Below are positions 5,214-24,814 of a stretch of 28,737 bases of DNA, piece by piece; position 1 is the first letter of the stretch; the number at the start of each line of letters is the position of its first letter. A program made the translations under genes and the position numbers. The DNA is from a virus: the IMG/VR virus record IMGVR_UViG_3300009514_001427; one strand, written 5' to 3'. The notes beneath the pieces were generated by a model. That model made no database searches. It saw only the letters and a list, made by a program, of their open reading frames with translations, and had not been told where the DNA came from.

Positions 5214-5241
5214 TTGACATTTATTCAGGATGGAGTATACT
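5214..5241 (+). promoter_or_regulatory. sigma70 promoter P3 (TTGACA-16-TATACT), leaderless
   Basis: TTGACA 5214-5219 and TATACT 5236-5241; the ATG lies 7 nt downstream. Confidence 0.65.
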
Positions 5242-5247
5242 TTAGGC

Positions 5248-5793
5248 ATGACAGATAACACACCCAAACCGAGAGTCGTCATCATCAAGGCTCGCGTACC
5301 TGATTTTTACGAGGGCGCGGATGTCGCGGCAATCGAAGTCACCGAGGATTTGATCCTCATGCTGGACAAGCGTATTGCTCAGACGAAGCGGATGTTTGAG
5401 CAGGATTTCTACGGTACTCGTTGGTGGAGCTACGCCCCGTATTTCGTCCGCTCTGCTGGTCCTGAGACATTTGGCATTCAGATGAGCGAGGAGGACTTCG
5501 AGGCGGCTCTGGATGCAAATGGGTGGGTCGAGGTTCCGGAGGATAGTGATTACGACCCTGCGGAGGATGATTATGCTCCGATAGATACTCTGCTGTTGCA
5601 GATTGGGGCTGTCCTCACGGCGAATGATACCACGTTTGCTGGATGGCAGTGGACTGGTTATGACAAGTACATCGGGGATAGCGCTCGCGTCACGACCTAT
5701 GAGATGGCAGAAGCCACCGTTGACGAGTGGGCTGAGTTGATTGGCTGCACTGAGAAGCTGCGACAGGTACGCAGGCTAAGGGGAGTGAGATGA
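5248..5793 (+). CDS. hypothetical protein, 181 aa, leaderless start
   Basis: ATG 5248 sits 7 nt after the -10 with no SD. It is in frame within ORF 5230..5793. Confidence 0.6.
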   Translation: MTDNTPKPRVVIIKARVPDFYEGADVAAIEVTEDLILMLDKRIAQTKRMFEQDFYGTRWWSYAPYFVRSAGPETFGIQMSEEDFEAALDANGWVEVPEDSDYDPAEDDYAPIDTLLLQIGAVLTANDTTFAGWQWTGYDKYIGDSARVTTYEMAEATVDEWAELIGCTEKLRQVRRLRGVR

Positions 5794-5990
5794 AGGTCAC
5801 AGTAGAGATAGCCGAGATCCATAAATCTATCCGCGAAATTGAAGTTCCGGATGGAGCGACGGATGCAGAGATACGCGCCCTGGCTGAGAAGGACGCAGGT
5901 CAGGCGAATGAGCTTAACTTGGAGTACAGTGACACTCTGCCTGCCGAGCAATGGACGATCCGCAAAGAAAACGGGGATCATATCGCTTGA
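5790..5990 (+). CDS. hypothetical protein, 66 aa
   Basis: ATGA overlap; GGGGAGTGAG RBS. The stop TGA lies inside the next -35 (gcTTGAca). Confidence 0.55.
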   Translation: MKVTVEIAEIHKSIREIEVPDGATDAEIRALAEKDAGQANELNLEYSDTLPAEQWTIRKENGDHIA

Positions 5991-6014
5991 CATTTATTCG
6001 CCATGTGGTATACT
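5987..6014 (+). promoter_or_regulatory. sigma70 promoter P4
   Basis: TTGACA 5987-5992, TATACT 6009-6014. Confidence 0.7.
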
Positions 6015-6034
6015 TACACTGAAAGGAGGCACTG

Positions 6035-6253
6035 ATGCCGGGACCAGAATTTCATCAAACAGGATACGGGCGAGCATTCTTTGAGGGGCAGTTGCCCGCA
6101 CTGATTAGGAATCTCGCACTGCTTACCAACAAGCAAACAGCATGTAACCTTCTTGCCGCAGGAGTTCTCGCGGGCAATGAAAACATGACGGCGGATGGGG
6201 CTGCTCGACGCGCCATCGAGACCTACGAGACCATCGAGAGGAAGTTGAGCTAA
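6035..6253 (+). CDS. hypothetical protein, 72 aa
   Basis: AAGGAGG at 6022-6028 with 6-nt spacing to ATG 6035. Confidence 0.6.
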   Translation: MPGPEFHQTGYGRAFFEGQLPALIRNLALLTNKQTACNLLAAGVLAGNENMTADGAARRAIETYETIERKLS

Positions 6254-6756
6254 TGTACGTCGTAGTTGTCAACGAAGATAACATTCTGCGTGAAGTGGTT
6301 TGCGTCACCAAAGATGCGAAGGTGGCTGAGGATCATTTCCTTGATGCCTGCAAGACCAATAGCAGTAATTGGGATGAGTATGAAATCGAGGATGTGGCTG
6401 CCTTTCTAGAAGATGCGTATTACCAGTTTGGCAATCAGGCTGTCGTACTGATGGATGTCTCGAACGTCAAGAGTGACGCCGAGATACTGGCTGAGCTTGC
6501 CAAGACGCCACCACCGGGCGTCCACAAAATCACCAACTGGATTCGCTCAGGAGAGATTGGCGAAGTCGATACCATCGAGGAAGTGATCGGTCGAGCAGGA
6601 ACCCTACTGGACAAAGCCTGTTCGCATGAAATCTTCGGCGATGTGGTATTTGGGGCTGAGGATGGCAAGGTCTACGTCTTGACCTGCGAGGGACAAGTGG
6701 GTCTTATCGCCAAGGATTACCTTGAACAGATCAGAGATGAGGATAACGATGGCTAA
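6253..6756 (+). CDS. hypothetical protein, 167 aa
   Basis: taATG overlap with the upstream stop; GAGG RBS. Confidence 0.6.
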   Translation: MYVVVVNEDNILREVVCVTKDAKVAEDHFLDACKTNSSNWDEYEIEDVAAFLEDAYYQFGNQAVVLMDVSNVKSDAEILAELAKTPPPGVHKITNWIRSGEIGEVDTIEEVIGRAGTLLDKACSHEIFGDVVFGAEDGKVYVLTCEGQVGLIAKDYLEQIRDEDNDG

Positions 6757-7246
6757 CCGAGTTCCATTAGAATTCACATGCCCGAAATGTGGTGAGCATC
6801 GCATCGAAGAAGTCATGGCAGATGTTGTTGTGGCCTCACGAGTTTGGCTGGCTCAGAACGCAGATGGCAGCGATCCCAGTTACGATCACGGAGAGCAAAC
6901 CAATGAGGGAGGGCACGTTGATCGCTACCAATGTGGAAACTGTGGTTGGACGATCATCAACGATGGGGGCGCTTACGAGAGATATACTCAGGACGGCTTG
7001 GATGGAGACGCCTTGATCGCTCGCATTAAGGCGATGAATGCCCAGAGAGACCTAGAAAATCCGGTCAGCCATGAGGAATTGGTTCTACGCATTGCCGACT
7101 CGTTTTCAGAGATGGACGGCGAGTCTTTGGCAGAGGTTTGGAACATGAACCTCTGTCCCAACAACCCGGTGAAGTATGTAGGAGACAGTATGTATGAGTG
7201 GGTCCAAGAAGATGCGTCCCCTGGAAGTGGCGGTAGCGAAGGGTGA
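6749..7246 (+). CDS. zinc-ribbon protein (CPKCG…CGNCG), 165 aa
   Basis: ATG 6749 with GAGGA at 6738-6742, in frame within ORF 6722..7246. Two CxxC pairs. Confidence 0.6.
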   Translation: MANRVPLEFTCPKCGEHRIEEVMADVVVASRVWLAQNADGSDPSYDHGEQTNEGGHVDRYQCGNCGWTIINDGGAYERYTQDGLDGDALIARIKAMNAQRDLENPVSHEELVLRIADSFSEMDGESLAEVWNMNLCPNNPVKYVGDSMYEWVQEDASPGSGGSEG

Positions 7247-7412
7247 TTACACATGGTACGCAGGCGTCTTTATAGAGATACCTGATGAGACCCCGGAGGA
7301 CAAAATCGAGGCTGCTGCGCTAGAAATAGTCCTGGCGCATCCCTGTTGTCAGGGTGAAGAGATAGCTCACGTTTGGGTGTATAATAGCATGGAGGATTCG
7401 CGGCCAGAATAA
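7194..7412 (+). CDS. hypothetical protein, 72 aa
   Basis: AGGAGA at 7181-7186 precedes ATG 7194. It overlaps the previous gene by ~50 nt. Confidence 0.45.
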   Translation: MSGSKKMRPLEVAVAKGDYTWYAGVFIEIPDETPEDKIEAAALEIVLAHPCCQGEEIAHVWVYNSMEDSRPE

Positions 7413-7426
7413 TTTCAACAAACCGC

Positions 7427-7454
7427 TTGACATTTCGGTAGCATGTGGTATACT
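7427..7454 (+). promoter_or_regulatory. sigma70 promoter P5
   Basis: TTGACA 7427-7432, TATACT 7449-7454. Confidence 0.7.
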
Positions 7455-8290: not shown

Positions 8291-8318
8291 TTGACATTTC
8301 CTGTGGCCATGGTATACT
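8291..8318 (+). promoter_or_regulatory. sigma70 promoter P6 (class II, TTGACATTTCCTGTGGCCATGGTATACT), leaderless
   Basis: TTGACA 8291-8296, TATACT 8313-8318; ATG at +7. Confidence 0.7.
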
Positions 8319-8324
8319 ATAGGC

Positions 8325-9338
8325 ATGAAAGTTACCTATGAGCTAACCATGAATGAAGATGCCGTAACGGTTATCTCGGCTAAATGCCAGTTGCCGTTGT
8401 ACGGTCGATGGACCGAATTGGTCGTCACGTCTTACGCTCTGCATGAGCGTGACTTCACAACGATGACCGCAGTGAATTTCGGTTTCCGAGCTATCCCGAA
8501 TTCGGAAGTTCGTGGTGACACGTTTGATGCCTCTCAGAATGGTATGCTCAATCTGTCGCGTGGCAAAGGGGCGATGCGACAGCAATTCCAGCAAGCCCTT
8601 CACGTACCGAACATCGTCGGTAATTTGCTCGACTACTCAGACCTGAATGACGGTGGAGTACCCGCTGGCAGGACCGTGACTGGTTCAATTTTGCGGCGAA
8701 TTGAATCCATCGTCGAAACGGCGCGTCAACGTATTCGGGACAATATGTCCACTGATCCCGAAGTACGCGCGATGACGTTGAATCTGATTGATGAGCGTTA
8801 CGGCGATGCAACCGCTAAGGCTATCACAGGTTTTCTTGGCCAGATAGACTGGAAATTGATGCTCGCTAAGTCGGGCTGCGATGATGACCAGTTGAATGTG
8901 GTCGAATTCGCTATGGGGCATAATCCCCCGCGTTTCCACAAGATTCACGATGAGCCAAGCGTTGACATTCCGCTGATCGCATCGGCTCCGCTGAATCGGT
9001 TTGATAGGGCGACGATAGCGAATATCAAAGCTACGGCATTACTCCGCAACGTCTGTGGTGAGAAGCTATTCAATGAGTTTGAATCGACGGGTCAGATAAC
9101 GGTCAATGAGCAAGGCTACGAATTCGTTATCAAACCGGGTGAATTCGTCGGGACTACTGATCCTAACGGCAAGACGGCTCGCCTCTGCATCCATACGATT
9201 GGGTTTCAATGCAACCCGATTGATGAGGTTGTGATAGCGTTTCTGCATATTCGCCACAAGCTCGCGGCGTATCTGCATGAAGCGATTGTCCATAGTCCGC
9301 AACAGGGATTTACGACAAAACTTGCAAAAGCCGCTTGA
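8325..9338 (+). CDS. hypothetical protein, 337 aa
   Basis: Leaderless ATG 6-7 nt after the -10. The stop TGA lies inside the next -35. Confidence 0.7.
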   Translation: MKVTYELTMNEDAVTVISAKCQLPLYGRWTELVVTSYALHERDFTTMTAVNFGFRAIPNSEVRGDTFDASQNGMLNLSRGKGAMRQQFQQALHVPNIVGNLLDYSDLNDGGVPAGRTVTGSILRRIESIVETARQRIRDNMSTDPEVRAMTLNLIDERYGDATAKAITGFLGQIDWKLMLAKSGCDDDQLNVVEFAMGHNPPRFHKIHDEPSVDIPLIASAPLNRFDRATIANIKATALLRNVCGEKLFNEFESTGQITVNEQGYEFVIKPGEFVGTTDPNGKTARLCIHTIGFQCNPIDEVVIAFLHIRHKLAAYLHEAIVHSPQQGFTTKLAKAA

Positions 9339-9362
9339 CATTTATTGTCGATGTGGTATACT
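9335..9362 (+). promoter_or_regulatory. sigma70 promoter P7
   Basis: TTGACA 9335-9340, TATACT 9357-9362. Confidence 0.7.
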
Positions 9363-9601: not shown

Positions 9602-10166
9602 CAGATATAACGCTTCAATCCGAATCGGTGGTACGATTGACAGAACCACCGACAGTCAATGCGATCCCGAGATGAGCGCTTTGAATGTGATGCTCGCCAT
9701 GATAAACGGTGCCGATGTTTCTCACGAGTGGGGAGATGCGGTGGCTGTGATCTGCGAGGGCGAGGACGATGAGTTGTTGCAGTACACCAATGATAACGGC
9801 TTGCTCGAATTCAAAGGAGAATCCGTAATCAATGGTGAGTTCGACGAGCTAGAAACATTTCTCCGCGAGCATGACATTCCGTACAACAGAAGCACCTGCG
9901 CGTATGGAGGGTATCTGGGCGAGGATGTCTACTGGATGCCTGGGATGGAGCAACCCCTGGTTATCCTGGGCGACGATCATGGGACGGATTACGTATCTAG
10001 AGAGGACATAAGCATCCTGTTGCATACGCTCAAGGAGGGGCGAGATGCGGATACGTTTGTGGACATGGCGCGTGAGTTGGTGCATACCGCTATCGAGAAG
10101 CTCGAAGAAGTTTGTCCTGATCCTCCCGACATTCCACCGTTCAAGATTGTCGGGGAAAAGCCTTGA
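9594..10166 (+). CDS. hypothetical protein, 190 aa
   Basis: GGAGG at 9581-9585; ATGccTGA overlap; stop inside the next -35. Confidence 0.65.
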   Translation: MPDRYNASIRIGGTIDRTTDSQCDPEMSALNVMLAMINGADVSHEWGDAVAVICEGEDDELLQYTNDNGLLEFKGESVINGEFDELETFLREHDIPYNRSTCAYGGYLGEDVYWMPGMEQPLVILGDDHGTDYVSREDISILLHTLKEGRDADTFVDMARELVHTAIEKLEEVCPDPPDIPPFKIVGEKP

Positions 10167-10190
10167 CATTTATTCCTCATGTGGTATACT
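10163..10190 (+). promoter_or_regulatory. sigma70 promoter P8, leaderless
   Basis: TTGACA 10163-10168, TATACT 10185-10190, ATG at 10197. Confidence 0.7.
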
Positions 10191-10196
10191 TAGGAC

Positions 10197-10478
10197 ATGG
10201 CAAAGGAAAAGATAGTTTGCAAGGAATGTGGCAGCGAGGAAGTACGCCGAGATGCTTTCGCTTCATGGGATGTGGACAAACAAGAGTGGGTTCTTCACGC
10301 CATATACGATCACTTCGTCTGCGACAGTGACGAGTGTAACGGAGAGCCTTGTGACATAAAGACAATCGAGGGCAAGGCGGGAGATTCGTCGAGCAACGAT
10401 CCGTTTGTGGCGAGCGGTAGCTCCGAGTCTCCCGCCTTGGAGCAGTTAGCTCCATTGGTCGGAGTGGGAAAGAATTAA
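10197..10478 (+). CDS. zinc-ribbon protein (CKECG…CDSDEC), 93 aa
   Basis: Leaderless ATG. Confidence 0.6.
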   Translation: MAKEKIVCKECGSEEVRRDAFASWDVDKQEWVLHAIYDHFVCDSDECNGEPCDIKTIEGKAGDSSSNDPFVASGSSESPALEQLAPLVGVGKN

Positions 10479-10770: not shown

Positions 10771-10798
10771 TTGACATTTCGTTGGGCCGTGGTATACT
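10771..10798 (+). promoter_or_regulatory. sigma70 promoter P10 (class II)
   Basis: TTGACA 10771-10776, TATACT 10793-10798. Confidence 0.7.
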
Positions 10799-10836: not shown

Positions 10837-11853
10837 ATGATGGTAGCAGCAGTCAGTACACGACATAATGCCTTGGACAGCTTTGGGTCAACTGTCCGCA
10901 ACAAGAAAGACCCGTATGAAGCCATGAGGAAGGCTAAGGGGCTGTTTGGACTCAAGAAGATGTCCCTTGCTGAATTCTCTGGTACGCCTGCCAACCCCGA
11001 CTTACACGTCGTGGTCCGTACCGATACGGGTGAGGCTATCGGTCAAGTCGGCAACAACTACGAGGTTTTCCCGAACGAGTCATTCTTCGGACCAACAGCA
11101 GAAGCGCTGGTTGAAGCGGGAGCCGAGATCACTAAGTTCCAAATGCTGGATCGTGGGACGCGGTCTTTCATGCGTCTTGCCTGGCCAGACGATGCCAACC
11201 TGCGCATCGGCAAGCCCAAAGTCGGCGACATTGTGGGTCGTCGCGCAACACTCTCCACATCACATGACGGCAAGTACGCAGGCAAGTTCACGCTCATGAT
11301 GCTTCGCCTTGCCTGTGAGAATGGGATGACCGTCCCAGTCGGCAGCTTCGACATGAATATGTTTCATACCGTGGGCGGCAAGCAGCAGCTTGTTGAGTTG
11401 AGCAACATGATCCCCACCGTTGAGACATACGTCCGTCAGTTTCAGGTTGCCGCAGACATGATGGCGGAAGTCCCTGTGAAGGCTGGCAGTGACTTGGCGA
11501 TGAAAATCATCGGCAAGGTTGCTGACCCCAAGGGTGGAGCCAAGGATACTTCGGGTGGAACCCCGAATCTCGCCAAGTCTCGCGTCATGCGCATTGCTGA
11601 GCTTTTCGAGGGAGAGCAACCGCAGGCAGACAATGTGGCGATCAAGGATACTGGCTGGGGTCTTTATAATGCTTGCGTGGACTTTTTCACGCATGACAAG
11701 GGGACTCGTGGACAGAACGAATCGGAGCGGTTGGAGCAGCGTTTTAAGAGCTTGCTTCCGGGTGGACCTGCCCAGCGAGAGATCGTACGGGCATGGGGCG
11801 TCGTGACAGATGGATTGGGGGTCAGTAACGCAATTGCCGCAGCAGTAAACTAA
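10837..11853 (+). CDS. hypothetical protein ~338 aa; resembles the DUF932/TIGR03299 phage/plasmid-related family (from memory; motif STSHDGKYAG)
   Basis: AGGAG at 10828-10832 with tandem ATGs at 10837 and 10840. The track ORF begins upstream inside the promoter. Confidence 0.7.
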   Translation: MMVAAVSTRHNALDSFGSTVRNKKDPYEAMRKAKGLFGLKKMSLAEFSGTPANPDLHVVVRTDTGEAIGQVGNNYEVFPNESFFGPTAEALVEAGAEITKFQMLDRGTRSFMRLAWPDDANLRIGKPKVGDIVGRRATLSTSHDGKYAGKFTLMMLRLACENGMTVPVGSFDMNMFHTVGGKQQLVELSNMIPTVETYVRQFQVAADMMAEVPVKAGSDLAMKIIGKVADPKGGAKDTSGGTPNLAKSRVMRIAELFEGEQPQADNVAIKDTGWGLYNACVDFFTHDKGTRGQNESERLEQRFKSLLPGGPAQREIVRAWGVVTDGLGVSNAIAAAVN

Positions 11854-11965: not shown

Positions 11966-11993
11966 TTGACATTTATTGCTCATGTGGTATACT
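11966..11993 (+). promoter_or_regulatory. sigma70 promoter P11, leaderless
   Basis: TTGACA 11966-11971, TATACT 11988-11993, ATG at 12000 (+7). Confidence 0.7.
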
Positions 11994-11999
11994 ATAGAC

Positions 12000-12155
12000 A
12001 TGAGAGAGCAAACCACCCCAATCTTATGGGAACGACTCAAGACCTTGCGAGAGAAACTTGCTCGCTTGGTCAGAGCAGGTAAACGTGGCAAGCTCAGAGA
12101 CTGGCGTGAATACAATCTCGTAGCCCGCGTCATTATGCGACGGAGAAAAGCCTAA
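12000..12155 (+). CDS. small basic protein, 51 aa (MREQTTPILWERLKTLREKLARLVRAGKRGKLRDWREYNLVARVIMRRRKA)
   Basis: Leaderless ATG at +7 from the -10. The stop TAA overlaps the next ATG (taATG). It falls below the track's length cutoff. Confidence 0.45.
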   Translation: MREQTTPILWERLKTLREKLARLVRAGKRGKLRDWREYNLVARVIMRRRKA

Positions 12156-12471: not shown

Positions 12472-12499
12472 TTGACATTTCTTGTGGCCGTGGTATACT
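12472..12499 (+). promoter_or_regulatory. sigma70 promoter P12 (class II, with upstream TTTCTTC), leaderless
   Basis: TTGACA 12472-12477, TATACT 12494-12499, ATG 12506. Confidence 0.7.
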
Positions 12500-12505
12500 A
12501 TAGAC

Positions 12506-12823
12506 ATGAACGACAACAAGACAATCGACGAAGCGGCTCAGGCAATCGACGATCACCAGTCGATGGTCGAATCCCGCACCGATAGGGAAATCTTCGCGGA
12601 GATGAATGAGATGGACCAGCCCAAAGTAACGGACTTCACCACAACCGTACCAGCAGAAAAGAGCGGCTTCGATGTCCGCGTGAAACTGGATAGCCGATGG
12701 GTCACAGTCGGCAATCATCCTACCCGCGAAGATGCAGAGCGAGCGGAATTGGCTCTTAGCCAAGTGATGATCGAATACAGGACCAAGCGCAACGCATGGG
12801 AGAACAGCCATGCCAACAGTTAG
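12506..12823 (+). CDS. hypothetical protein, 105 aa
   Basis: Leaderless ATG; in frame with track ORF 12482..12823. Confidence 0.6.
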   Translation: MNDNKTIDEAAQAIDDHQSMVESRTDREIFAEMNEMDQPKVTDFTTTVPAEKSGFDVRVKLDSRWVTVGNHPTREDAERAELALSQVMIEYRTKRNAWENSHANS

Positions 12824-12829: not shown

Positions 12830-12857
12830 TTGACATTTCCGCTCTATGAGGTATACT
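12830..12857 (+). promoter_or_regulatory. sigma70 promoter P13, leaderless
   Basis: TTGACA 12830-12835, TATACT 12852-12857, ATG 12864 (+7). Confidence 0.7.
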
Positions 12858-12863
12858 AAAACT

Positions 12864-13088
12864 ATGGGACTAACAGTTGACAAGAAAGACTCGCCTCAAG
12901 CTGAGCGAATCATTAACGCGGGCAAAGAAATAACCAAACTGGTCCGCGAAACGGTCTATGCTGACCGACATTCAAGAAACTGTGCTACCGGGGCGCATCC
13001 CAATCGCTGGACGGATGCAGCGAGGAAACGGGATGACGCCGTGAAGTTTTTGAAGGAGCGACTGCAACAAATAGCAGAAGAAATCTGA
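12864..13088 (+). CDS. hypothetical protein, 74 aa
   Basis: Leaderless ATG in frame in ORF 12846..13088. Confidence 0.55.
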   Translation: MGLTVDKKDSPQAERIINAGKEITKLVRETVYADRHSRNCATGAHPNRWTDAARKRDDAVKFLKERLQQIAEEI

Positions 13089-13097: not shown

Positions 13098-13125
13098 TTG
13101 ACATTTATCCCTGATGTGGTATACT
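13098..13125 (+). promoter_or_regulatory. sigma70 promoter P14
   Basis: TTGACA 13098-13103, TATACT 13120-13125. Followed by the conserved leader ggtaacgacggcaagttacttgAAGGGAGCTAAAAATG. Confidence 0.7.
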
Positions 13126-13163: not shown

Positions 13164-13625
13164 ATGCCACAAATCAGACGAGATGAAATGGTCGTGGGAA
13201 TGCAGGCGGTTAAAACCGTCCAGTCCGCAACTTGGAGACGCCGTGGCGATAAGGTCGTCAACCGTTGCGTCAACTGTGAGTCTGAGACAGCCACCCATGA
13301 GGGCGAGCGATTCTGCAACCACTGCAACTGCTTTGTCCCAACGTACAAGAGTACGGAAGCTGCCGAGGGCGATCTTGTCACGATGCAGTTTATTCCCCGT
13401 ATCAATCCCAACGGGACCAAAAACTGGACCCCCGCTGGCGGTGAATGCTTCGGCGTAGCAACCAGAGCAGAGGCAGACGCGATCAAGCGTAAGCATGGTC
13501 TGGTTGGCGTCCTCAAGATGTCCGAGACTGCCACTGGCGACATGCGGGCTTTGCCACGAGTTATCCCGGTGGATGATGTGGTGACATGGAAAGCCGAGGG
13601 AGTAGAATACGAAGTAGTCGATTGA
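13164..13625 (+). CDS. zinc-ribbon protein (CVNCESETATHEGERFCNHCNC), 153 aa; paralog of the gene at 22006..22506
   Basis: AAGGGAG at 13151-13157. The two paralogs share MQAVKTVQS.TWRRR.DK.V.RCV.CE.ETATH.G.RFCN.C, MQFIPKINP.GTKNWTPAGG and a …EGVEY.VVD C-terminus. Confidence 0.7.
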   Translation: MPQIRRDEMVVGMQAVKTVQSATWRRRGDKVVNRCVNCESETATHEGERFCNHCNCFVPTYKSTEAAEGDLVTMQFIPRINPNGTKNWTPAGGECFGVATRAEADAIKRKHGLVGVLKMSETATGDMRALPRVIPVDDVVTWKAEGVEYEVVD

Positions 13626-13716
13626 AACTATGGGAGCGTAGGAGAAGCAGGGTAGGCGTACGCAACGCCCTGTGGCGACCGATATGTGATATACGGCACT
13701 GTTGGCAGGACGCTGC

Positions 13717-13728
13717 CAGAAATAAGCA
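13717..13728 (+). repeat. CAGAAATAAGCA motif variant, copy 3
   Basis: 10/12 match. Confidence 0.45.
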
Positions 13729-13931
13729 GTGCAATGTGGGGTTGGCACCCACCGCTCCCAGCCAGAACGCGTCAGAGTTGGCACGGTTCTAGAACGTGTA
13801 ACCGAAGGCATTCGGTGATGGGCATTGCGTAGGATAGGTGGGAGGCGCTGATACCTGCATTCCGGTGTAGATGAGCCATCCTTGAAATACCACCCTTTGC
13901 CCGGCAACTCTTATTTTTGTTCATTTTCTTC

Positions 13932-13959
13932 TTGACATTTCTCCTGGCCGTGGTATACT
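13932..13959 (+). promoter_or_regulatory. sigma70 promoter P15 (class II: gttcattttcttcTTGACATTTCTCCTGGCCGTGGTATACT)
   Basis: TTGACA 13932-13937, TATACT 13954-13959. Confidence 0.7.
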
Positions 13960-13977: not shown

Positions 13978-14280
13978 ATGATGAGCCACAAAGTTACATG
14001 CGAAGATTGCGGACAAGAGGTTAGCCACGCCAGTTGTCGCACTGTTGGAGCGACGAAGAAATGGCTCTGTGGCGTCTGTGATGAATCATGCGAGCCTTGT
14101 CGTGGCTGCGACTCACACGATGTGGTATACTCCGATCATGGCGTCGATCTTTGCCAGTCCTGCAAGGATAACGCAACGCCAGAGCAAAAAGCGGACTTGT
14201 ACGAGCGTGACTATATGGACGCGCTGGAAAGTGGGCATCCAATGGCAGACCGCATGCCCATGCCTTCTAACTGGAGATAA
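13978..14280 (+). CDS. Cys-rich, probably zinc-binding, protein, 100 aa (many CxxC)
   Basis: AGGGAG at 13968-13973 with tandem ATGs at 13978 and 13981. Confidence 0.6.
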   Translation: MMSHKVTCEDCGQEVSHASCRTVGATKKWLCGVCDESCEPCRGCDSHDVVYSDHGVDLCQSCKDNATPEQKADLYERDYMDALESGHPMADRMPMPSNWR

Positions 14281-14464: not shown

Positions 14465-14670
14465 TGTTTCCTGTCAACGGCAAGTGGTTTCTTGAGTCTA
14501 CCCATGAACCCAACAGGGAGATATTCCTAGTCAACCAAGGCGCTACCTGGCGTACTTTCACCCAGTATGGAGATGCTGAAGCGTTCGCTAAAAGGATGGA
14601 TCAGACGCTCAATGACGTCACTATCTTGACAGTGAAACCCGTCCTGCATTTACCGCAAAAAAGCACTTGA
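14464..14670 (+). CDS. hypothetical protein, 68 aa
   Basis: taATG coupling with GGAGG upstream. Confidence 0.5.
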   Translation: MFPVNGKWFLESTHEPNREIFLVNQGATWRTFTQYGDAEAFAKRMDQTLNDVTILTVKPVLHLPQKST

Positions 14671-14694
14671 CATTTCTCCTGGCCGTGGTATACT
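14667..14694 (+). promoter_or_regulatory. sigma70 promoter P16 (class II)
   Basis: TTGACA 14667-14672, TATACT 14689-14694. Confidence 0.7.
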
Positions 14695-15156: not shown

Positions 15157-15185
15157 TTGACATTTCCCCCGACGTATGGTATAAT
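15157..15185 (+). promoter_or_regulatory. sigma70 promoter P17, perfect consensus TTGACA-17-TGgTATAAT, leaderless
   Basis: TTGACA 15157-15162, TATAAT 15180-15185, ATG 15192 (+7). Confidence 0.7.
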
Positions 15186-15191
15186 AGAACC

Positions 15192-15347
15192 ATGAAGCAG
15201 GATAAGAGACAACTCATCGGTCGCGACCCAACCAAGGGATTGCTGGCCTTCAAAACAGGTTCGCAGCTAAACCGCAAGGATCGACTGCGCAACCGCAACT
15301 CCAAGGTCGCTCGCGCCACCCTTCGACGCCAGCTTAATGGCGACTGA
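15192..15347 (+). CDS. small basic protein, 51 aa (MKQDKRQLIGRDPTKGLLAFKTGSQLNRKDRLRNRNSKVARATLRRQLNGD)
   Basis: Leaderless ATG. It falls below the track's length cutoff. Confidence 0.4.
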   Translation: MKQDKRQLIGRDPTKGLLAFKTGSQLNRKDRLRNRNSKVARATLRRQLNGD

Positions 15348-15515: not shown

Positions 15516-15543
15516 TTGACATTTATTCCCAATGTGGTATACT
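15516..15543 (+). promoter_or_regulatory. sigma70 promoter P18
   Basis: TTGACA 15516-15521, TATACT 15538-15543. Leader is …gacggataaggatactcacAAGGGAGCAAACAATG. Confidence 0.7.
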
Positions 15544-16197: not shown

Positions 16198-16225
16198 TTG
16201 ACATTTTGGGCGTATGTGGTATACT
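16198..16225 (+). promoter_or_regulatory. sigma70 promoter P19, drives a non-coding transcript
   Basis: TTGACA 16198-16203, TATACT 16220-16225. Confidence 0.65.
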
Positions 16226-16412
16226 TCAAGAGAATGAGAGACGGCAATAGGGACAACAAGGTACAGGAGATGAAACCATGAAGTCGTAAACGAACCCCGT
16301 CAAGCAACTGATAATGAGATGAATGAGACAAAACCCAAAGGGCAACCCAGACGCGACCCAATAGTAACGTGATAAAGATCGCACGACTGGATAGCCCTTT
16401 CGGGGCACCGCA

Positions 16413-16442
16413 GCGGGGGCTGAAATAAGCCCCCGCTTTTCT
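16413..16442 (+). terminator. rho-independent terminator (gcgggggc-TGAAATAA-gcccccgc-TTTTCTT)
   Basis: Perfect 8-bp GC stem, 8-nt loop and a T-run. Confidence 0.8.
16420..16431 (+). repeat. CTGAAATAAGCC motif, copy 5 (forms the loop of a terminator)
   Basis: Exact 12-mer. Confidence 0.6.
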
Positions 16443-16464: not shown

Positions 16465-16492
16465 TTGACAATTCCGAAGTATGTGGTATACT
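16465..16492 (+). promoter_or_regulatory. sigma70 promoter P20, leaderless
   Basis: TTGACA 16465-16470, TATACT 16487-16492, ATG 16499. Confidence 0.7.
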
Positions 16493-16498
16493 AAAGGT

Positions 16499-16975
16499 AT
16501 GACAACGACAACAATCAAACCAGATGGACTCGCGTTGGCTGGACTCGGACTCGACAAAGGCTTGCTACTCCGCGTAGCCCGCTGTTTGCTCGCAGACATT
16601 TACTGGGATGATGACCAGGAAACCCAGTATCGAGCAGACTGCAAGGTCCGTAGCGAGCCGTGGATTAGGGAGCTTATGAAGCGCCCAGAAACTCCACAAG
16701 TCCCAGACGAGACAGACGCTCTCATCCGTATGGCTCATATCTGCGGACGAATTGAACAGGCATGGGGCGAGTCATTCTACAGCGTGGCGCGACGTATCTG
16801 TAAGCATGATGAAGTCAAAGAGGAAGTACAAGAGGACTTGGTTTACTACGCTCTCATGGCGGCAATGGGACATGGCGTAGGTCCACAAGATGTAGACGGC
16901 TTCCCAGAGGAGCTTGACGCCAGCCCGATCAATATCGAAAACCCAATGCTCTACCAACTGGCGTTGCTGGAATAG
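16499..16975 (+). CDS. hypothetical protein, 158 aa
   Basis: Leaderless ATG in frame in ORF 16481..16975. Confidence 0.65.
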   Translation: MTTTTIKPDGLALAGLGLDKGLLLRVARCLLADIYWDDDQETQYRADCKVRSEPWIRELMKRPETPQVPDETDALIRMAHICGRIEQAWGESFYSVARRICKHDEVKEEVQEDLVYYALMAAMGHGVGPQDVDGFPEELDASPINIENPMLYQLALLE

Positions 16976-16989: not shown

Positions 16990-17017
16990 TTGACATTTAT
17001 TGCTCATGTGGTATACT
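16990..17017 (+). promoter_or_regulatory. sigma70 promoter P21
   Basis: TTGACA 16990-16995, TATACT 17012-17017. Confidence 0.7.
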
Positions 17018-17819: not shown

Positions 17820-17847
17820 TTGACAAACGCACCTCATGTGGTATACT
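17820..17847 (+). promoter_or_regulatory. sigma70 promoter P22
   Basis: TTGACA 17820-17825, TATACT 17842-17847. Leader is tagacggtagcgaacaaccttacgccaCAAGGAGCAAACAATG. Confidence 0.7.
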
Positions 17848-18230: not shown

Positions 18231-18258
18231 GCCCCCGAGAAATCGGGGGCTTTCTTTT
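18231..18258 (+). terminator. rho-independent terminator with a GNRA tetraloop (gcccccga-GAAA-tcgggggc-TTTCTTTT)
   Basis: Perfect 8-bp stem plus T-run. Confidence 0.8.
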
Positions 18259-18302: not shown

Positions 18303-18330
18303 TTGACATTTGCTGGGAAAGAGGTATACT
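18303..18330 (+). promoter_or_regulatory. sigma70 promoter P23, leaderless
   Basis: TTGACA 18303-18308, TATACT 18325-18330, ATG 18338. Confidence 0.7.
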
Positions 18331-18337
18331 ATAAACG

Positions 18338-18769
18338 ATGAAACTGAATGACCGACAACAGGAAAAGGCAATCGGACTGCGCCAGCTTATCAAGTCACCA
18401 AGACCATGTGACGAAAAGGGCTGGTCCGCTCACATCGACTTCACCAGGGCTTTGGCGAAGATGCTCGATGGCATCGACGTAATACAAAGCCCCGTGGCGA
18501 TGAAAGAGACGTTCGACAGGGCTTGGAGAGCTTATGCCCATTACTGGGCAAACGAAAACGACAGGGTTCTGTTTGAAGCACTGGGCAGCGATGAGATACT
18601 GGTCGCAAAGGTCAAGGAGCATGAAAACGGACGGCGAATTGTCAACCGTATTCTTGCCCGAGTGAAAGAACAGTATGGGGGAATTAACCCCGAAGTAAAC
18701 GCCAGCTCCGTCGAAATCACAGACATTCTCACCGAAGAGATGGACGGCGAATGGTCCGAAGAGGTATAA
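18338..18769 (+). CDS. hypothetical protein, 143 aa
   Basis: Leaderless ATG. Confidence 0.65.
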   Translation: MKLNDRQQEKAIGLRQLIKSPRPCDEKGWSAHIDFTRALAKMLDGIDVIQSPVAMKETFDRAWRAYAHYWANENDRVLFEALGSDEILVAKVKEHENGRRIVNRILARVKEQYGGINPEVNASSVEITDILTEEMDGEWSEEV

Positions 18770-18877: not shown

Positions 18878-18906
18878 TTGACATTTATTGCTGGCCGTGG
18901 TATACT
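18878..18906 (+). promoter_or_regulatory. sigma70 promoter P24 (17-nt spacer)
   Basis: TTGACA 18878-18883, TATACT 18901-18906. Leader is tagaacaacggtaagttactctaagccaCAAAGGAGCAAACAATG. Confidence 0.7.
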
Positions 18907-18948: not shown

Positions 18949-19407
18949 ATGTCAAAGATCAGCTATGTTGGAACTCGCGTCACTCGTAACGCCAAATACA
19001 CTCCAGCCGCCAAGAATGGAATGCTCGACGCCGCTGAACGTGAATTGCGACGATTCACAAAGCCACAGCGTATCAATGAGAATTGGTGGAGCCGACAACT
19101 CGGGTTCCGTGAGGACTACGGGAAACTAACCAACGGGGAAACTCCGTGGGCAACGCTCCGAGTTATGATGACTCGCAACGCCGACGATGGACGCGGCAAA
19201 GGTACGAGATTCGTCCGATTCGAGGCGGGATTCGTCGCAAGATCGAAATTCGATCAAGACCCGGCATGGTATCGACGCGAATACGGCAAGCCCGTCACCA
19301 GCAAGAGAAAACCAGCGCTCAAGAAACAAGGCGTACTCACAGTCTGTACCACAACCTGTCAATGTTGCGGCAGAAAAAATGACCACGTTTGGTACGAAGC
19401 CGCTTGA
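18949..19407 (+). CDS. hypothetical protein, 152 aa (C-terminal CTTTCQCCGRKNDH)
   Basis: AAAGGAGC RBS. The stop TGA lies inside the next -35. Confidence 0.65.
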   Translation: MSKISYVGTRVTRNAKYTPAAKNGMLDAAERELRRFTKPQRINENWWSRQLGFREDYGKLTNGETPWATLRVMMTRNADDGRGKGTRFVRFEAGFVARSKFDQDPAWYRREYGKPVTSKRKPALKKQGVLTVCTTTCQCCGRKNDHVWYEAA

Positions 19408-19431
19408 CTTTTCTCGTGGCCGTGGTATACT
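19404..19431 (+). promoter_or_regulatory. sigma70 promoter P25 (TTGACT, class II)
   Basis: TTGACT 19404-19409, TATACT 19426-19431. Confidence 0.65.
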
Positions 19432-19661: not shown

Positions 19662-19662
19662 C

Positions 19663-19906: not shown

Positions 19907-19934
19907 TTGACAATTCTTGTGGCCGTGGTATACT
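19907..19934 (+). promoter_or_regulatory. sigma70 promoter P26 (class II, upstream AAAGAAAAGTTCATTTTCTAC)
   Basis: TTGACA 19907-19912, TATACT 19929-19934. Confidence 0.7.
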
Positions 19935-19976: not shown

Positions 19977-20258
19977 ATGAGGACTTACGATAACGGTAGC
20001 GGCTTTACGGTGTCATTCAGCGAGTCTGACGCTGACGAATTTAATGCGTCCTGGCCTTGCAGTACCGTAAACGGACCCGGTTGGTTTGCTTACGATAATA
20101 ACGGCGACCTGACCGATTGTGGAGGCGAAGCCGATCACGGTGACGGGGCGGACTGGCTTGCATTTTCGCAGGACTGCCAAAAGTACGGCGAGCAACGTAT
20201 CGGAGCGCTGAGAAAACGTCACGAGCGAGCCGAAAAGAAAAGTTCATTTTCTTCTTGA
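19977..20258 (+). CDS. hypothetical protein, 93 aa
   Basis: CAGGGAGA RBS. The C-terminus is translated from the promoter UP-region, and the stop TGA is the -35 (cTTGAca). Confidence 0.55.
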   Translation: MRTYDNGSGFTVSFSESDADEFNASWPCSTVNGPGWFAYDNNGDLTDCGGEADHGDGADWLAFSQDCQKYGEQRIGALRKRHERAEKKSSFSS

Positions 20259-20283
20259 CAACCTCTGGAGTATGGGGTATACT
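20255..20283 (+). promoter_or_regulatory. sigma70 promoter P27 (class II)
   Basis: TTGACA 20255-20260, TATACT 20278-20283. Confidence 0.65.
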
Positions 20284-20628: not shown

Positions 20629-20657
20629 TTGACAACTCCCGTGGCATGTGGTATACT
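20629..20657 (+). promoter_or_regulatory. sigma70 promoter P28 (class II), leaderless
   Basis: TTGACA 20629-20634, TATACT 20652-20657, ATG 20664. Confidence 0.7.
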
Positions 20658-20663
20658 TTAGAC

Positions 20664-20909
20664 ATGTTTGAATGGCTCAACAATCTAAAGCCCGGCGATC
20701 AAGTGACTGTCCGTGACCGAGACCACAACAGGCTCGGACAATTCCCAGAAAGACAATGGGCAGAAGTGGTCAGCGAAATCACAGCAGACCATATCAAAAC
20801 TCTGCCCGTTGGATATGTACCGGGATCGAAAACTATCGAGCCATTCAGACTGTTTGACCGACGATTCGGCAGCAGCAATACAGAGGAGCTAAGACCATGT
20901 TCGCAATAG
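20664..20909 (+). CDS. hypothetical protein, 81 aa
   Basis: Leaderless ATG in frame in ORF 20646..20909. Confidence 0.55.
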   Translation: MFEWLNNLKPGDQVTVRDRDHNRLGQFPERQWAEVVSEITADHIKTLPVGYVPGSKTIEPFRLFDRRFGSSNTEELRPCSQ

Positions 20910-21184
20910 TCCTATCAGATGTCAGAGCCAACAGAAACGAACTCGTAGGCTGGAAAGCTACAGTCTATCCCGTCGATGGTTACGACCGTTGCGACGGATG
21001 CCAAGACCACAGCAAGCCCGCTCTAGGCTGTCAATACGTCGAGTCACAAATCCACAAAGACCCCAAAGACGCAATCGACGAAGTTGCAAGGATTGCCGCG
21101 CGACGAGCAGAAAGACGCGAAGGCTCCGAAGTATTCCACGTCCCCCATGAAGAAGTTCAGAAATTTGCTGAACAAATCGCTTGA
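20897..21184 (+). CDS. hypothetical protein, 95 aa
   Basis: GAGGAG RBS. The stop lies inside the next -35. Confidence 0.55.
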   Translation: MFAIVLSDVRANRNELVGWKATVYPVDGYDRCDGCQDHSKPALGCQYVESQIHKDPKDAIDEVARIAARRAERREGSEVFHVPHEEVQKFAEQIA

Positions 21185-21208
21185 CATTTATTCCCCATGT
21201 GGTATACT
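21181..21208 (+). promoter_or_regulatory. sigma70 promoter P29
   Basis: TTGACA 21181-21186, TATACT 21203-21208. Leader is gtaagtgacggcaagagaaaaccaCAAAGGAGCTAAGCCGATG. Confidence 0.7.
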
Positions 21209-21937: not shown

Positions 21938-21965
21938 TTGACTATTCCGTCTCATGTAGTATACT
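21938..21965 (+). promoter_or_regulatory. sigma70 promoter P30 (TTGACT-16-TATACT)
   Basis: TTGACT 21938-21943, TATACT 21960-21965. Leader is ctatgtagacgacggttactcaaacAAAGGGAGCTAGACAATG. Confidence 0.6.
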
Positions 21966-22560: not shown

Positions 22561-22596
22561 CCTCAGAACTGACATAACCACATCCGCTCGTCAGCG

Positions 22597-22608
22597 CAGA
22601 AATAAGCC
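22597..22608 (+). repeat. CAGAAATAAGCC motif, copy 8
   Basis: 11/12 match. Confidence 0.55.
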
Positions 22609-22661
22609 CCGATCCAACCTGTTAGTTCCCGAAAATAATCTTACTGGGCCCGATTTTTTTC

Positions 22662-22689
22662 TTGACATTCGCTCCCTATGTAGTATACT
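22662..22689 (+). promoter_or_regulatory. sigma70 promoter P31
   Basis: TTGACA 22662-22667, TATACT 22684-22689. Leader is tatattgacgacggtaggaaactcgaaccAAAAGGGAGCTAACAATG. Confidence 0.7.
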
Positions 22690-22733
22690 TATATTGACGA
22701 CGGTAGGAAACTCGAACCAAAAGGGAGCTAACA

Positions 22734-23672
22734 ATGACAAAGCAACGCAAAACAAAAGGCGACGTTTACCAGTGGATCACCGAACGAATGATCGCGGCAT
22801 TGGAAGCGGGAACGGTCCCGTGGCGGCGTCCGTGGTTGCTGATGAACGCCCCGGCGAATCTCATATCGGGCAAAACGTATCGCGGCGTCAATCTGTTTTC
22901 GCTCGCTATCGCTGGCGAAAAATACACTAGCCGATGGTGGCTGACTGCCAAGCAAGCCCGCGACCGTGGCGGTCACGTCCGCAAGGGCGAACGGTCGTCG
23001 ATGGTGGTTCGTCCGCTAGTCGGTGAGAAAACGAAAAACGGTCAGCCCGTACTCGACGCCAACGGCAAGCCACAAAAATACTTCGGTATGCGATACTCGA
23101 ATGTTTTCAACGTCGAGCAATGCGAGGGAATCGAGTATCCCAAGCCCGAAACCGGCAAGCCCGTCGATACGCTGGAAGTCTGCGAAAACATCATCGGCAA
23201 TTGGACCGATTGCCCGCCAATTGGTTACGGTGGCGACCGGGCGTATTATTCGCAAAGCGACGACCGTATCCAAATGCCAATGCGTGACACTTTCGAGGGA
23301 TCGGAACGATTCTACTCGGTCCTATTCCACGAATGTATTCACGCGACCGGACATAAGTCTCGGCTCAATCGTGACCTAACTGGACACTTCGGAACGTCGG
23401 ACTATGCCCGCGAGGAACTCGTTGCCGAAATGGGCGCAGCTTTCCTATGCGGCGTGGCGGGAATCGAATGCAAGACGGTCGATAACTCGGCAGCGTATAT
23501 CGCTAACTGGTTGCAGCGATTAAAAAACGATCATAAGCTAGTCGTCACTGCCGCCAAGCAAGCGCAAGCGGCGGCGGAGAGTATCCAAGGCATCGAAGCT
23601 CCGAAGTATGACAGCGAACCGCAAGATGGAAACGAGAGTGCCAACGCGATGGCACAAACCGTAGCGGCGTAA
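22734..23672 (+). CDS. ardC: ArdC-like antirestriction protein (N-terminal ssDNA-binding DUF1738-like domain plus C-terminal zincin metalloprotease, HExxH = FHECIHATGH)
   Basis: N-terminal …VPWRRPW…GKTYRGVNLFSL… and C-terminal HECIHATGH…ELVAEMGAAFLC are typical of ArdC/TraC1-N proteins as recalled from memory. Confidence 0.8.
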   Translation: MTKQRKTKGDVYQWITERMIAALEAGTVPWRRPWLLMNAPANLISGKTYRGVNLFSLAIAGEKYTSRWWLTAKQARDRGGHVRKGERSSMVVRPLVGEKTKNGQPVLDANGKPQKYFGMRYSNVFNVEQCEGIEYPKPETGKPVDTLEVCENIIGNWTDCPPIGYGGDRAYYSQSDDRIQMPMRDTFEGSERFYSVLFHECIHATGHKSRLNRDLTGHFGTSDYAREELVAEMGAAFLCGVAGIECKTVDNSAAYIANWLQRLKNDHKLVVTAAKQAQAAAESIQGIEAPKYDSEPQDGNESANAMAQTVAA

Positions 23673-23982
23673 GACTCACCACCGAGGCGGGCGGGTGCCA
23701 GACCAGTGGCACCCCGCTCGCCGCATACCTTAGACAGTGCCACGAGCATGGCACGCAAAGCGCGGAATTGAATAAGAACAAAAACCAAACAAAAAGTGTT
23801 CAAAATTTTTTGCAAATGACATACATTCTCCCACCCCTTTTGAACTTTCGGTTCCATATTTGCTCGCCGGGGGGTGTCCCCATCTGAAGCAAGCTAGCTG
23901 TGTGCATAAGGGGTATGGGTATGTCCTCCGGTGCAAACGCGGGTCCCTTTTTGCGTAGCCGAGGGTGCCCTGGCTGATGGTA

Positions 23983-24023
23983 CCAAAAAATAGGAGCCGC
24001 TCCATTGGTCAGAGACGGCTCCT
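23983..24023 (-). terminator. rho-independent terminator on the minus strand
   Basis: On the + strand the sequence reads ccAAAAAAT-aggagccg-N16-cggctcct. On the - strand the 8-bp stem is followed by ATTTTTTGG. Confidence 0.5.
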
Positions 24024-24156
24024 GGTGATGCTGCCACTCGGGCAGATGGGCTAGTGGTGTAGTAGGCAGTATGACTGGGGCTGGTGGTGATGTCAATAAA
24101 AAAGCGCGGATAAAATATGGCTGTTTTTGTGAAGTTTTCGCGGAAAATTGGCGTCC

Positions 24157-24184
24157 TTGACATTTCTGTGAGATGTGGTAGAAT
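24157..24184 (+). promoter_or_regulatory. sigma70 promoter P32 (TTGACATTTCTGTGAGATGTGGTAGAAT), leaderless
   Basis: TTGACA 24157-24162, TAGAAT 24179-24184, ATG 24191 (+7). Confidence 0.55.
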
Positions 24185-24190
24185 TTTGGC

Positions 24191-24814
24191 ATGATAGATC
24201 ACTCGATAGATGAATTGCGTGGCCACGCGGATTATCATGGCGTGAGGAAAATTGCCGATCTGATGTTGGATGATCCTCGCTTTATCGTATGGAGTGGTTC
24301 ATCTCATGAGGGTCAGCATCATCACGGTACTGGGGGATTGGTCACTCATGTCTCTGAAGTTGTACATATGTGCATGCTCTTGAAAAACGAATGCTATCCA
24401 GATCTGGATGAGAAGGTATTGTTCTTATCAGCTCTGTTGCATGACTGGGGCAAGCTTTGGGATTACGAGCCTTGGGATTACGGTTCCACAGCAAAACCAT
24501 TGAAGGCATGCGTGATAACTGACCCGAAACTAATCGATCAGCATACCAAATGGCGCGGGGCTCCTCACAAGCGGAACATTCATCATATCAGTCGATCTGC
24601 CATTGAGTGGAGCAAGGCGGTTGCTCTCACTGGGGAATGCAAAGACATTGAGGAGCAGGTCACTCATGCGATTCTGGCTCATCATGGTCAGAGGGCATGG
24701 GGATCACCAGTGGCTCCCAACAGTCGTATTGCATGGCTCTTGCATTGTTGCGACATTATAAGTGCTCGCATGGCAGATTGTGAAACGCTGGATTATCTCA
24801 AGTTCCGGAAGTAG
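24191..24814 (+). CDS. HD-domain metal-dependent phosphohydrolase, 207 aa
   Basis: The H…HHHG…H / LLHDWGK / ILAHHGQ motifs are consistent with the HD superfamily. Confidence 0.75.
   Translation: MIDHSIDELRGHADYHGVRKIADLMLDDPRFIVWSGSSHEGQHHHGTGGLVTHVSEVVHMCMLLKNECYPDLDEKVLFLSALLHDWGKLWDYEPWDYGSTAKPLKACVITDPKLIDQHTKWRGAPHKRNIHHISRSAIEWSKAVALTGECKDIEEQVTHAILAHHGQRAWGSPVAPNSRIAWLLHCCDIISARMADCETLDYLKFRK

Follow-up and report, generated by a model that had tools for sequence, protein, structure and literature searches.

The cI gene of phage lambda, transcribed from PRM, is an example of the single leaderless genes that phages and transposons carry in hosts that use Shine-Dalgarno (SD) sequences, and large virulent phages carry arrays of early or takeover genes, as in the T4 early promoters and the SPO1 host-takeover module. 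The cI transcript is a model leaderless mRNA; when an mRNA opens with AUG, 70S ribosomes bind it together with initiator tRNA, it needs neither an SD sequence nor protein S1, and it is favoured or disfavoured by the level of initiation factor 3 (IF3), the level of initiator tRNA and stress (PMC9031893). Many phage transcripts have no leader (PMC5312081). The generally accepted mark of a leaderless gene in bacteria is a -10 box 6-8 nt ahead of its start codon (PMC6028130, PMC3160421). Such genes account for 19-39% of genes in Actinobacteria and Deinococcus-Thermus (PMC3160421) and for 25-50% of operons in the 'group C' genomes of GeneMarkS-2 (Actinobacteria, Deinococcus-Thermus; PMC6028130). 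The leading or establishment regions of conjugative plasmids are described as rich in anti-defence genes by Samuel et al., 2024 (PMC11541004). We compare with these systems a 28,737-nt stretch of DNA, IMG/VR virus record IMGVR_UViG_3300009514_001427 (the whole stretch is called the window below), which is part of a large mobile element. It carries an array of promoters, and eleven of the genes behind them are likely expressed as leaderless mRNAs, each from its own near-consensus promoter and at a predicted start site.

Results

Eleven genes start directly behind a -10 box

A sequence-only reading of the window had proposed that at least eleven genes start right behind a -10 box without an SD sequence and that their mRNAs would be leaderless. 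The junctions proved to be as described. Full promoters of the TTGACA / 16-17 bp / TATACT type lie upstream of all eleven sites, seven of them with a TG extended -10, and the distance between -10 box and ATG is 6 nt in ten units and 7 nt in one, within the 6-8 nt range of leaderless genes. All start codons are ATG, and each opens an open reading frame (ORF) of 51-337 aa. Genes are named below by the first base of their start codon. The predicted leaderless units, from the -35 hexamer to the end of the ORF, are as follows:

5214-5793, + strand: unit 1; -35 at 5214-5219, -10 TATACT at 5236-5241, ATG 5248, 181-aa ORF; GGAG at 5232-5235 in the spacer
8291-9338, + strand: unit 2; -10 at 8313-8318, ATG 8325, 337-aa ORF
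10163-10478, + strand: unit 3; -10 at 10185-10190, ATG 10197, 93-aa Cys-rich ORF
11966-12155, + strand: unit 4; -10 at 11988-11993, ATG 12000, 51-aa very basic ORF
12472-12823, + strand: unit 5; -10 at 12494-12499, ATG 12506, 105-aa ORF
12830-13088, + strand: unit 6; -10 at 12852-12857, ATG 12864, 74-aa ORF
15157-15347, + strand: unit 7; 17-bp spacer, -10 TATAAT at 15180-15185, ATG 15192, 51-aa basic ORF
16465-16975, + strand: unit 8; -10 at 16487-16492, ATG 16499, 158-aa ORF; terminator 16412-16437 upstream
18303-18769, + strand: unit 9; -10 at 18325-18330, 7-nt gap, ATG 18338, 143-aa ORF; terminator 18231-18250 upstream
20629-20909, + strand: unit 10; 17-bp spacer, -10 at 20652-20657, ATG 20664, 81-aa ORF
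24157-24814, + strand: unit 11; -10 TAGAAT at 24179-24184, ATG 24191, 207-aa HD-domain protein

The exact pattern TATACTNNNNNNATG (TATACT-N6-ATG) has nine matches in the window, all on the + strand, against 0.06 expected from dinucleotide-preserving shuffles (n = 100), none of which reached nine. Eight of the matches are at the proposed start codons 5248, 8325, 10197, 12000, 12506, 12864, 16499 and 20664. Genes 15192 and 24191 keep the 6-nt gap behind the variant -10 boxes TATAAT and TAGAAT, and the junction with the 7-nt gap, at 18338, reads TATACTataaacgATG. No SD sequence was found between -10 and ATG in any of the eleven units, where the discriminator of 6-7 nt stands alone.

These promoters belong to a larger array. 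A search for TTGACA / 16-17 bp / TATACT with at most two mismatches, combined with a general promoter scan, showed that positions 156 to 24184 of the + strand hold about 32 strong promoters, close to one per gene, and that the - strand of the window has a single comparable site; the genes of the array are all on the + strand. The promoters are built from a T-rich tract, cTTGACAttt, a spacer of 16-17 bp and TATACT, and the 3' ends of the spacers mostly read (a)tgtgg or gccgtgg, which amounts to a TG extended -10. Between 5000 and 24900, 28 sites on the + strand scored 11-12 of 12, 21 of them with the TG extension, and the promoter scan of this interval found 57 promoter-like sites where 15.9 were expected. 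With a TTGACA -35, a spacer within 16-18 bp, a TATAAT-like -10 and an optional TG, the sites have the features of sigma-70 / sigma-A housekeeping promoters.

Sigma-70 RNA polymerase classically starts at a purine (+1) that follows a pyrimidine (-1), 7 nt after the -10. At the sixth base past the -10, 31 of the 32 promoters of the array have a pyrimidine; at the seventh, all 32 have a purine (A in 24, G in 8). The constancy of this dinucleotide points to a fixed start site that is common to leaderless and leadered promoters. When sorted by the first plausible start codon, the 32 promoters comprise 11 leaderless, 19 leadered and 2 odd ones (1653, 16198). The conserved purine is the A of the ATG in ten of the 11 leaderless units and, for 18338, the G just before the ATG. 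By chance, an ATG at the start position would be expected in about 0.5 of the 32 promoters; it was seen in 11, ten at position 7 and one shifted by a base. Host RNA polymerase starting at this purine would yield, from the eleven units, mRNAs that begin with the start codon (one base earlier for 18338) and, from the 19 others, transcripts with a leader of 12-41 nt and a GGAG-type SD sequence.

The first 30 nt of the eleven leaderless ORFs fold weakly, with a mean of -1.25 kcal/mol compared with -4.5 kcal/mol for internal windows of the same genes (Mann-Whitney p<1e-4). The starts of SD-led genes fold similarly weakly (-1.6 kcal/mol). The start dinucleotide, the ATG placed exactly on it, the unstructured 5' ends and the conservation among orthologues described below give the predicted leaderless mRNAs strong support in silico.

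In-frame ATG codons that stem from the promoter spacer (cATGtggTATACT...) lie 18 nt 5' of four leaderless starts, at 5230, 12846, 16481 and 20646. The program-made ORF list of the window begins these four ORFs at the spacer ATG, and gene callers would probably do likewise, adding six false residues.

Conservation in related metagenomic contigs

Relatives of the window were found through its ArdC-type anti-restriction protein (L156, 68% identical; L157, 86%; L158, 57%; L161, 51%) and through homologues of the 18338 protein (L241, L242/L243, L244, L250 and L251). The promoter-per-gene layout is common to L156, L157, L158 and L161. Clustering the promoter-proximal genes of the window and seven related loci gave 12 orthologue groups, and in 11 of them all members have the same class, either leaderless or SD-led. 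Across the family, 21 of 78 promoter-proximal genes are of the leaderless type. Ten leaderless starts were found in the relatives, and all nine that were inspected (those other than the one on L158) have the 6-nt gap.

Conservation of the N-terminus rests on three of the 11 leaderless genes that have orthologues (12506, 15192 and 18338), all of which match their orthologues from the first residue on and retain the junction of -10 and ATG. The orthologue of 15192 at L242:3202 has an identical junction, TATAATagaaccATG, and that at L156:2605 reads TATAATaccccATG. The 18338 unit has the same build in the window and six relatives: a GC hairpin with T tract, TTGACA, 16 bp, TATA(C/T)T, ATAAGC/ATAGGC and ATG. 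The gap is 6 nt in the six relatives as opposed to 7 nt in the window, a single inserted base that is the window's only difference. Five database homologues of the 18338 protein are all 139-142 aa long, which fits the same N-terminus.

The ninth exact TATACT-N6-ATG match, at 14126-14140 (ATG 14138), was considered as a twelfth leaderless gene and rejected. No -35 precedes it. It falls out of frame within the coding sequence 13978-14280 (84% identity to the L242 orthologue) and is not conserved in L242 (TCTACT...ACG), so that we regard it as a chance match.

Five near-identical copies of ataaccccTTGACAaaacatgc.ccatgaacTATACT, all leadered, lie within 1.7 kb 5' of the ArdC gene of L161 (Ga0105050_10055958, 34-1672), and the promoter seems to come in a version peculiar to each element of the family. 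An alignment search with ArdC returned 80 loci of at most 52% identity, among which L161 alone has a comparable promoter array. A megablast search with 25 kb against phage records (50,697; INPHARED) gave no match, and no relatives were found with DUF932 and ArdC queries in IMG/VR or with DUF932 in metagenome contigs. Likewise, the pattern TTGACATTT-N10-TGGTATACT retrieved no relatives from IMG/VR and GTDB genomes, where it hit single generic promoters, mostly of Clostridia metagenome-assembled genomes (MAGs) and also of Omnitrophota, Brocadiia and the candidate phyla radiation (CPR).

An unrelated viral contig of 33 kb, L018 (IMGVR_UViG_3300000553_000168; GC 35%), has nine TTGACA-16/17-TATAAT-like promoters in 5.9 kb on the - strand (1192-5486). 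Seven of the nine have an ATG 5-9 nt past the -10, with ORFs of 59-225 aa, making this array even richer in the leaderless type.

Alternative readings of the junctions

Several points weigh against leaderless expression of the eleven genes. GGAG or GAGG stands just 5' of the -10, 12-14 nt before the ATG, in the units 5214, 12830 and 18303. The 12506 group switches class, being leaderless in the window and L156 and SD-led in L158, the most distant relative. In 21 kb of chromosome sampled from the organism whose PstS homologue is nearest (see below), all starts are of the SD type, which suggests that leaderless genes may not be abundant in the host; the sample has a GC content of 58.6% and is too small to decide. 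The start sites are predictions by rules set mainly for E. coli-type RNA polymerase, which may not be those of the host. Finally, some translation from read-through RNA could occur by re-initiation, by 70S scanning or with the AU-rich -10 region as a standby site.

Terminator-like sites are rare on the + strand of the array (about 4 in 20 kb), so each gene is probably also present on transcripts from upstream promoters. Two intrinsic terminators bear directly on leaderless units:

16412-16437, + strand: intrinsic terminator with a 10-bp stem, 8 GC pairs and a T tract; insulates unit 8
18231-18250, + strand: intrinsic terminator, its hairpin retained through compensatory changes in six relatives; insulates unit 9

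We consider it unlikely that the eleven genes are translated mainly from read-through transcripts in an SD-independent manner (by termination-reinitiation, 70S scanning or S1 binding to the AU-rich TATACT), with the tight spacing reflecting no more than a promoter packed into a gap of 30-50 nt. The scarcity of + strand terminators, nine units with none upstream, upstream genes that mostly stop 30-66 nt before the leaderless ATGs, and the three GGAG or GAGG motifs would all suit such a scheme. Packing, however, leaves the exact 6-nt gap unexplained, in the window as in the relatives, and does not account for an ATG that falls on the very start purine conserved in the leadered promoters. Moreover, units 8 and 9 sit behind strong terminators, that of unit 9 conserved in six relatives, so read-through cannot be their main source; with a terminator directly upstream and no SD sequence, a leaderless transcript is the only evident route of expression for 18338. 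The three GGAG or GAGG motifs lie upstream of the predicted start, yet read-through transcripts would contain them.

It is very improbable that the true starts are downstream in-frame codons, or that the ATG at +1 is coincidental and the mRNAs carry short untranslated, coding-like leaders. Most of these ORFs do have a later in-frame ATG, GTG or TTG, and nothing else speaks specifically for such starts. SD-preceded in-frame starts, which the sequence-only reading had itself named as the refuting case, were looked for and not found within 100 nt downstream in any of the 11 ORFs. Downstream starts are also at odds with orthologues that align from residue 1, with the uniform length of the 18338 homologues and with the excess of start-site ATGs, each opening a long ORF, while the low 5' structure fits real starts.

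The spacers of the 32 promoters form subfamilies, ..cATGTGG (17), ..GGCCGTGG or GGCCATGG (8) and others (7), which are kept at orthologous positions in L242 and L156; the spacers of 13932 and L242:2130 are identical. This conservation exceeds promoter needs, and the spacers may serve as operators for global repressors of the array. It is hardly credible that the 28-29 bp repeat is no housekeeping promoter with this start at all, being instead a repeat or operator that serves a factor encoded by the element, or the site of another sigma factor or polymerase that starts elsewhere, for its hexamers, 16-17 bp spacing, TG and pyrimidine-purine start match the sigma-70 consensus, and all copies but one are oriented like the gene that follows, most of them between genes. 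As operators commonly overlap promoters, both functions are compatible.

Leaderless expression from their own promoters would have a consequence for the eleven genes. SD-led genes would be translatable from any transcript, including read-through. Leaderless genes have no ribosome-binding site when internal to a transcript, so their output should track the firing of their own promoter. The suggestion that the mixed use of both modes is a way to set expression levels is plausible.

Leadered and odd promoters

A further point of the sequence-only reading, good SD sequences in other genes that have these promoters, also holds true. Nineteen of the 21 remaining promoters, all but 1653 and 16198, are followed by a leader of 12-41 nt, counted from the predicted start, with an SD sequence of the GGAG, AGGAG or GGAGG type and, at 14667 alone, AAGGA:

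156-183, + strand: leadered promoter, ATG 218 (AGGAG)
3275-3302, + strand: leadered promoter, ATG 3345, 621-aa ATPase-like protein
5987-6014, + strand: leadered promoter, ATG 6035 (GGAGG)
7427-7454, + strand: leadered promoter, ATG 7499
9335-9362, + strand: leadered promoter, ATG 9398
10771-10798, + strand: leadered promoter, ATG 10837, DUF932 protein (10837-11853)
13098-13125, + strand: leadered promoter, ATG 13164
13932-13959, + strand: leadered promoter with short leader, ATG 13978
14667-14694, + strand: leadered promoter with short leader, ATG 14716
15516-15543, + strand: leadered promoter, ATG 15583
16990-17017, + strand: leadered promoter with short leader, ATG 17039
17820-17847, + strand: leadered promoter, ATG 17895
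18878-18906, + strand: leadered promoter, ATG 18949
19404-19431, + strand: leadered promoter (TTGACT), ATG 19473
19907-19934, + strand: leadered promoter, ATG 19977
20255-20283, + strand: leadered promoter, ATG 20327
21181-21208, + strand: leadered promoter, ATG 21249
21938-21965, + strand: leadered promoter (TTGACT), ATG 22006
22662-22689, + strand: leadered promoter, ATG 22734, ArdC-type anti-restriction protein (22734-23672)

The long leaders (28-41 nt) behind promoters 3275, 13098, 15516, 17820, 18878, 21181, 21938 and 22662 form a sequence family, with GACGG, AACGG or GACGA among the first 8 nt and CACAAAGGAGCwAAnCA ahead of the start codon. The short leaders (12-15 nt) have the sequence AGAAAGGGAGA. 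A promoter together with its leader appears to be a reusable cassette, of which there are three versions. The two odd promoters are:

1653-1680, + strand: odd promoter (TAGACT); ATG at +1 (1687) opens a 9-codon ORF (1687-1716)
16198-16225, + strand: odd promoter; no ORF of more than 15 codons before the terminator at 16412-16437

Downstream of promoter 1653 lies a gene of 478 aa with ATG 1749 preceded by GGAG, and an in-frame ATG at 1734 has no SD sequence; the 9-codon ORF may be a leaderless upstream mini-ORF. The segment 16198-16437 may give rise to a small RNA of about 205 nt, or might encode a tiny near-leaderless peptide (MRDGNRDNKVQEMKP, ATG at +3). It had no Rfam match.

Products of the leaderless genes and the surrounding element

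Searches of Pfam, PHROGs and NCBIfam assigned no function to ten of the 11 leaderless gene products; that of 24191 alone matches a domain, HD. Conceivably, these products are regulators of which little is needed. Genes 12000-12155 and 15192-15347 encode 51-aa, very basic proteins rich in Arg and Lys and without a family match, which may bind nucleic acid or the ribosome. The 15192 protein is 74.5% identical to its L156 orthologue, the highest value among the window-L156 gene pairs found in that search.

The ArdC protein of the window is recorded on a metagenomic contig of 153 kb, of which 28.7 kb are visible here. Its gene (22734-23672) encodes the N-terminal and metallopeptidase domains (E 1e-41 and 6e-26) and matches the PHROG 'anti-restriction protein'. 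Other recognisable genes encode the DUF932 protein, a divergent RuvB-like ATPase (611-1690) and the HD protein (24191-24814), and a gene for an S-adenosylmethionine (SAM) methyltransferase lies beside the array on the - strand. The 621-aa protein (3345-5210) shows about 27% identity to 'ATP-binding proteins' of megaplasmids. Most other ORFs of the window had no family match. The ten largest window proteins had no structural PHROG hit, and no phage hallmark gene was found in the window. Neither an origin of transfer (oriT) nor a relaxase or type IV secretion system (T4SS) gene is visible in the window, and no relaxase or T4SS Pfam family was found on the retrieved parts of L156 and L158. As a one-directional array that contains a known anti-defence gene, ArdC, the region shares one feature with a leading region or anti-defence island. 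It resembles the establishment region of a plasmid or an integrative and conjugative element (ICE) as well as the early region of a phage, and it may be either.

The array stops after 24184. In the part of the window from 24800 to 28737, one consensus promoter on the - strand (-35 from 25057) precedes a 69-aa ORF (25007-24798). From about 25.7 kb onwards, neighbouring genes on the + strand adjoin or overlap each other, consensus promoters are absent and GC falls to 44-47%; GC skew climbs to 0.25-0.32 over 25-27 kb. This suggests that the part beyond the array is a different functional module.

The window also holds, at 13816-13906 on the + strand, a 91-nt copy of the three-way junction of the 23S rRNA L1 stalk (helices 76-78). 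It matches positions 2125-2216 of the Rfam large-subunit (LSU) model with 51.4 bits, above the gathering score (E 1e-12). The loops GUAGGAUAGGUGGGAGGC and GAGCCAUCCUUGAAAUACCACCC follow the family consensus almost base for base, and the stems have diverged yet still pair. The copy is located in the non-coding gap 13626-13931, 3' of gene 13164-13625 and followed by a T-rich tract, inside a structured stretch of 300 nt (-111.8 kcal/mol, z -2.0). It may act as a decoy that binds ribosomal protein uL1 or the elbows of tRNAs. No such copy was found in the retrieved parts of the relatives, searches of plasmids and phages matched only genuine 23S genes (at most 80% identity), and we found no literature on it.

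Host clues

The leaderless genes had been taken as a hint to a host with efficient leaderless initiation, such as Actinobacteria or Deinococcus-Thermus. We found no support for this. GC is 44-57% per kb in the window (about 50%) and 42-51% in the relatives, and neither this mid-range composition nor the gene content of window and relatives, including the PstS protein of L158, gives any sign of those phyla. L156 and L158 carry a gene for an outer-membrane protein (Phenol_MetA_deg), and L158 also an Hc1 histone-like gene. The L158 PstS is 67-71% identical to PstS proteins of Phycisphaerae/Planctomycetota MAGs, and all six organism-named hits belong to that phylum. These findings suggest that the host is a diderm, possibly a member of the Planctomycetota; they are indirect clues that fall short of a host assignment. 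Leaderless mRNAs are translated in E. coli too (PMC9031893); together with the presence of leaderless genes on elements of SD-using hosts, this makes the leaderless fraction a weak host marker. We found no paper on leaderless genes in Planctomycetes.

Discussion

The mode of initiation, leaderless or SD-led, is conserved gene by gene in this family, which argues for selection on the initiation mode and not on the protein alone. For a family of large marine-sediment elements, possibly of Planctomycetota, one may speculate, with considerable doubt, about a hard-wired two-channel entry programme, in which a constitutive consensus promoter would transcribe each gene separately. A conserved third of the genes would be translatable only as mRNAs with a 5'-terminal AUG, which would require both firing of the gene's own promoter and the availability of 70S-type initiation, and the SD-led genes from any transcript. 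Such a programme, if it exists, could help with timing or dosage, or allow expression independent of the host and robust when SD-dependent initiation is disturbed. The L1-stalk mimic, as a ribosome-directed RNA of the element, might be a partner in it.

On a more practical level, the junctions supply rules for annotating gene starts in this family of large mobile elements, which is as yet uncharacterised. The cassettes of promoter, leader and leaderless type, a compact natural set with a common core promoter, would also be suited to studying how leader type sets expression. Should the host belong to the Planctomycetota, these genes would be early evidence of leaderless expression in a phylum whose transcription and translation signals are poorly known.

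How does the array compare with described systems? As in group C genomes, the -10 lies 6-8 nt before the start, there is no SD sequence, and leaderless and SD-led genes are mixed; the leaderless share is about a third (window, 11 of 32; family, 21 of 78), compared with 25-50% in group C. Unlike there, the genes are on a mobile element and not on a chromosome, and the promoters have a full -35 and a mostly extended, near-consensus -10 instead of the loose TANNNT of high-GC group C genomes. The GC content of the relatives (42-51%) and the host clues (diderm, possibly Planctomycetota) set the array apart as well.

Like the leading regions of conjugative plasmids, the window has small genes, ArdC among them, arrayed in one direction beside a methyltransferase gene on the opposite strand, and strong, immediate expression upon entry would make sense for an array of this kind. 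It differs in that no oriT, relaxase or T4SS gene is seen in the window and in that its promoters are double-strand sigma-70 promoters, as opposed to single-strand hairpin promoters. In a full-text literature search, we found no paper connecting leaderless genes with arrays of this kind or with the leading regions of plasmids. The resemblance to the early arrays of T4 and SPO1 lies in the very strong host-type promoters, which number in the tens, have an extended consensus peculiar to the element and each serve one or two small ORFan genes in one orientation. Unlike those phages, the window lacks phage hallmark genes and had no relatives in INPHARED or IMG/VR, and its recognisable genes are of plasmid or ICE type (ArdC, DUF932, the homologue of megaplasmid ATP-binding proteins).

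Lambda cI is a likeness of another sort, a transcript of a mobile element that begins with AUG and binds 70S ribosomes directly, as is predicted here. Whereas cI is one regulatory gene, the eleven genes of the window constitute a systematic class that is conserved gene by gene in the relatives. Leaderless genes, the spacing between -10 and ATG and their presence on phages are already known. What is new is that, in this uncharacterised family, a single near-consensus promoter type is shared by three kinds of cassette (leaderless, short-leader and long-leader), and that the kind is specific to the gene and conserved.

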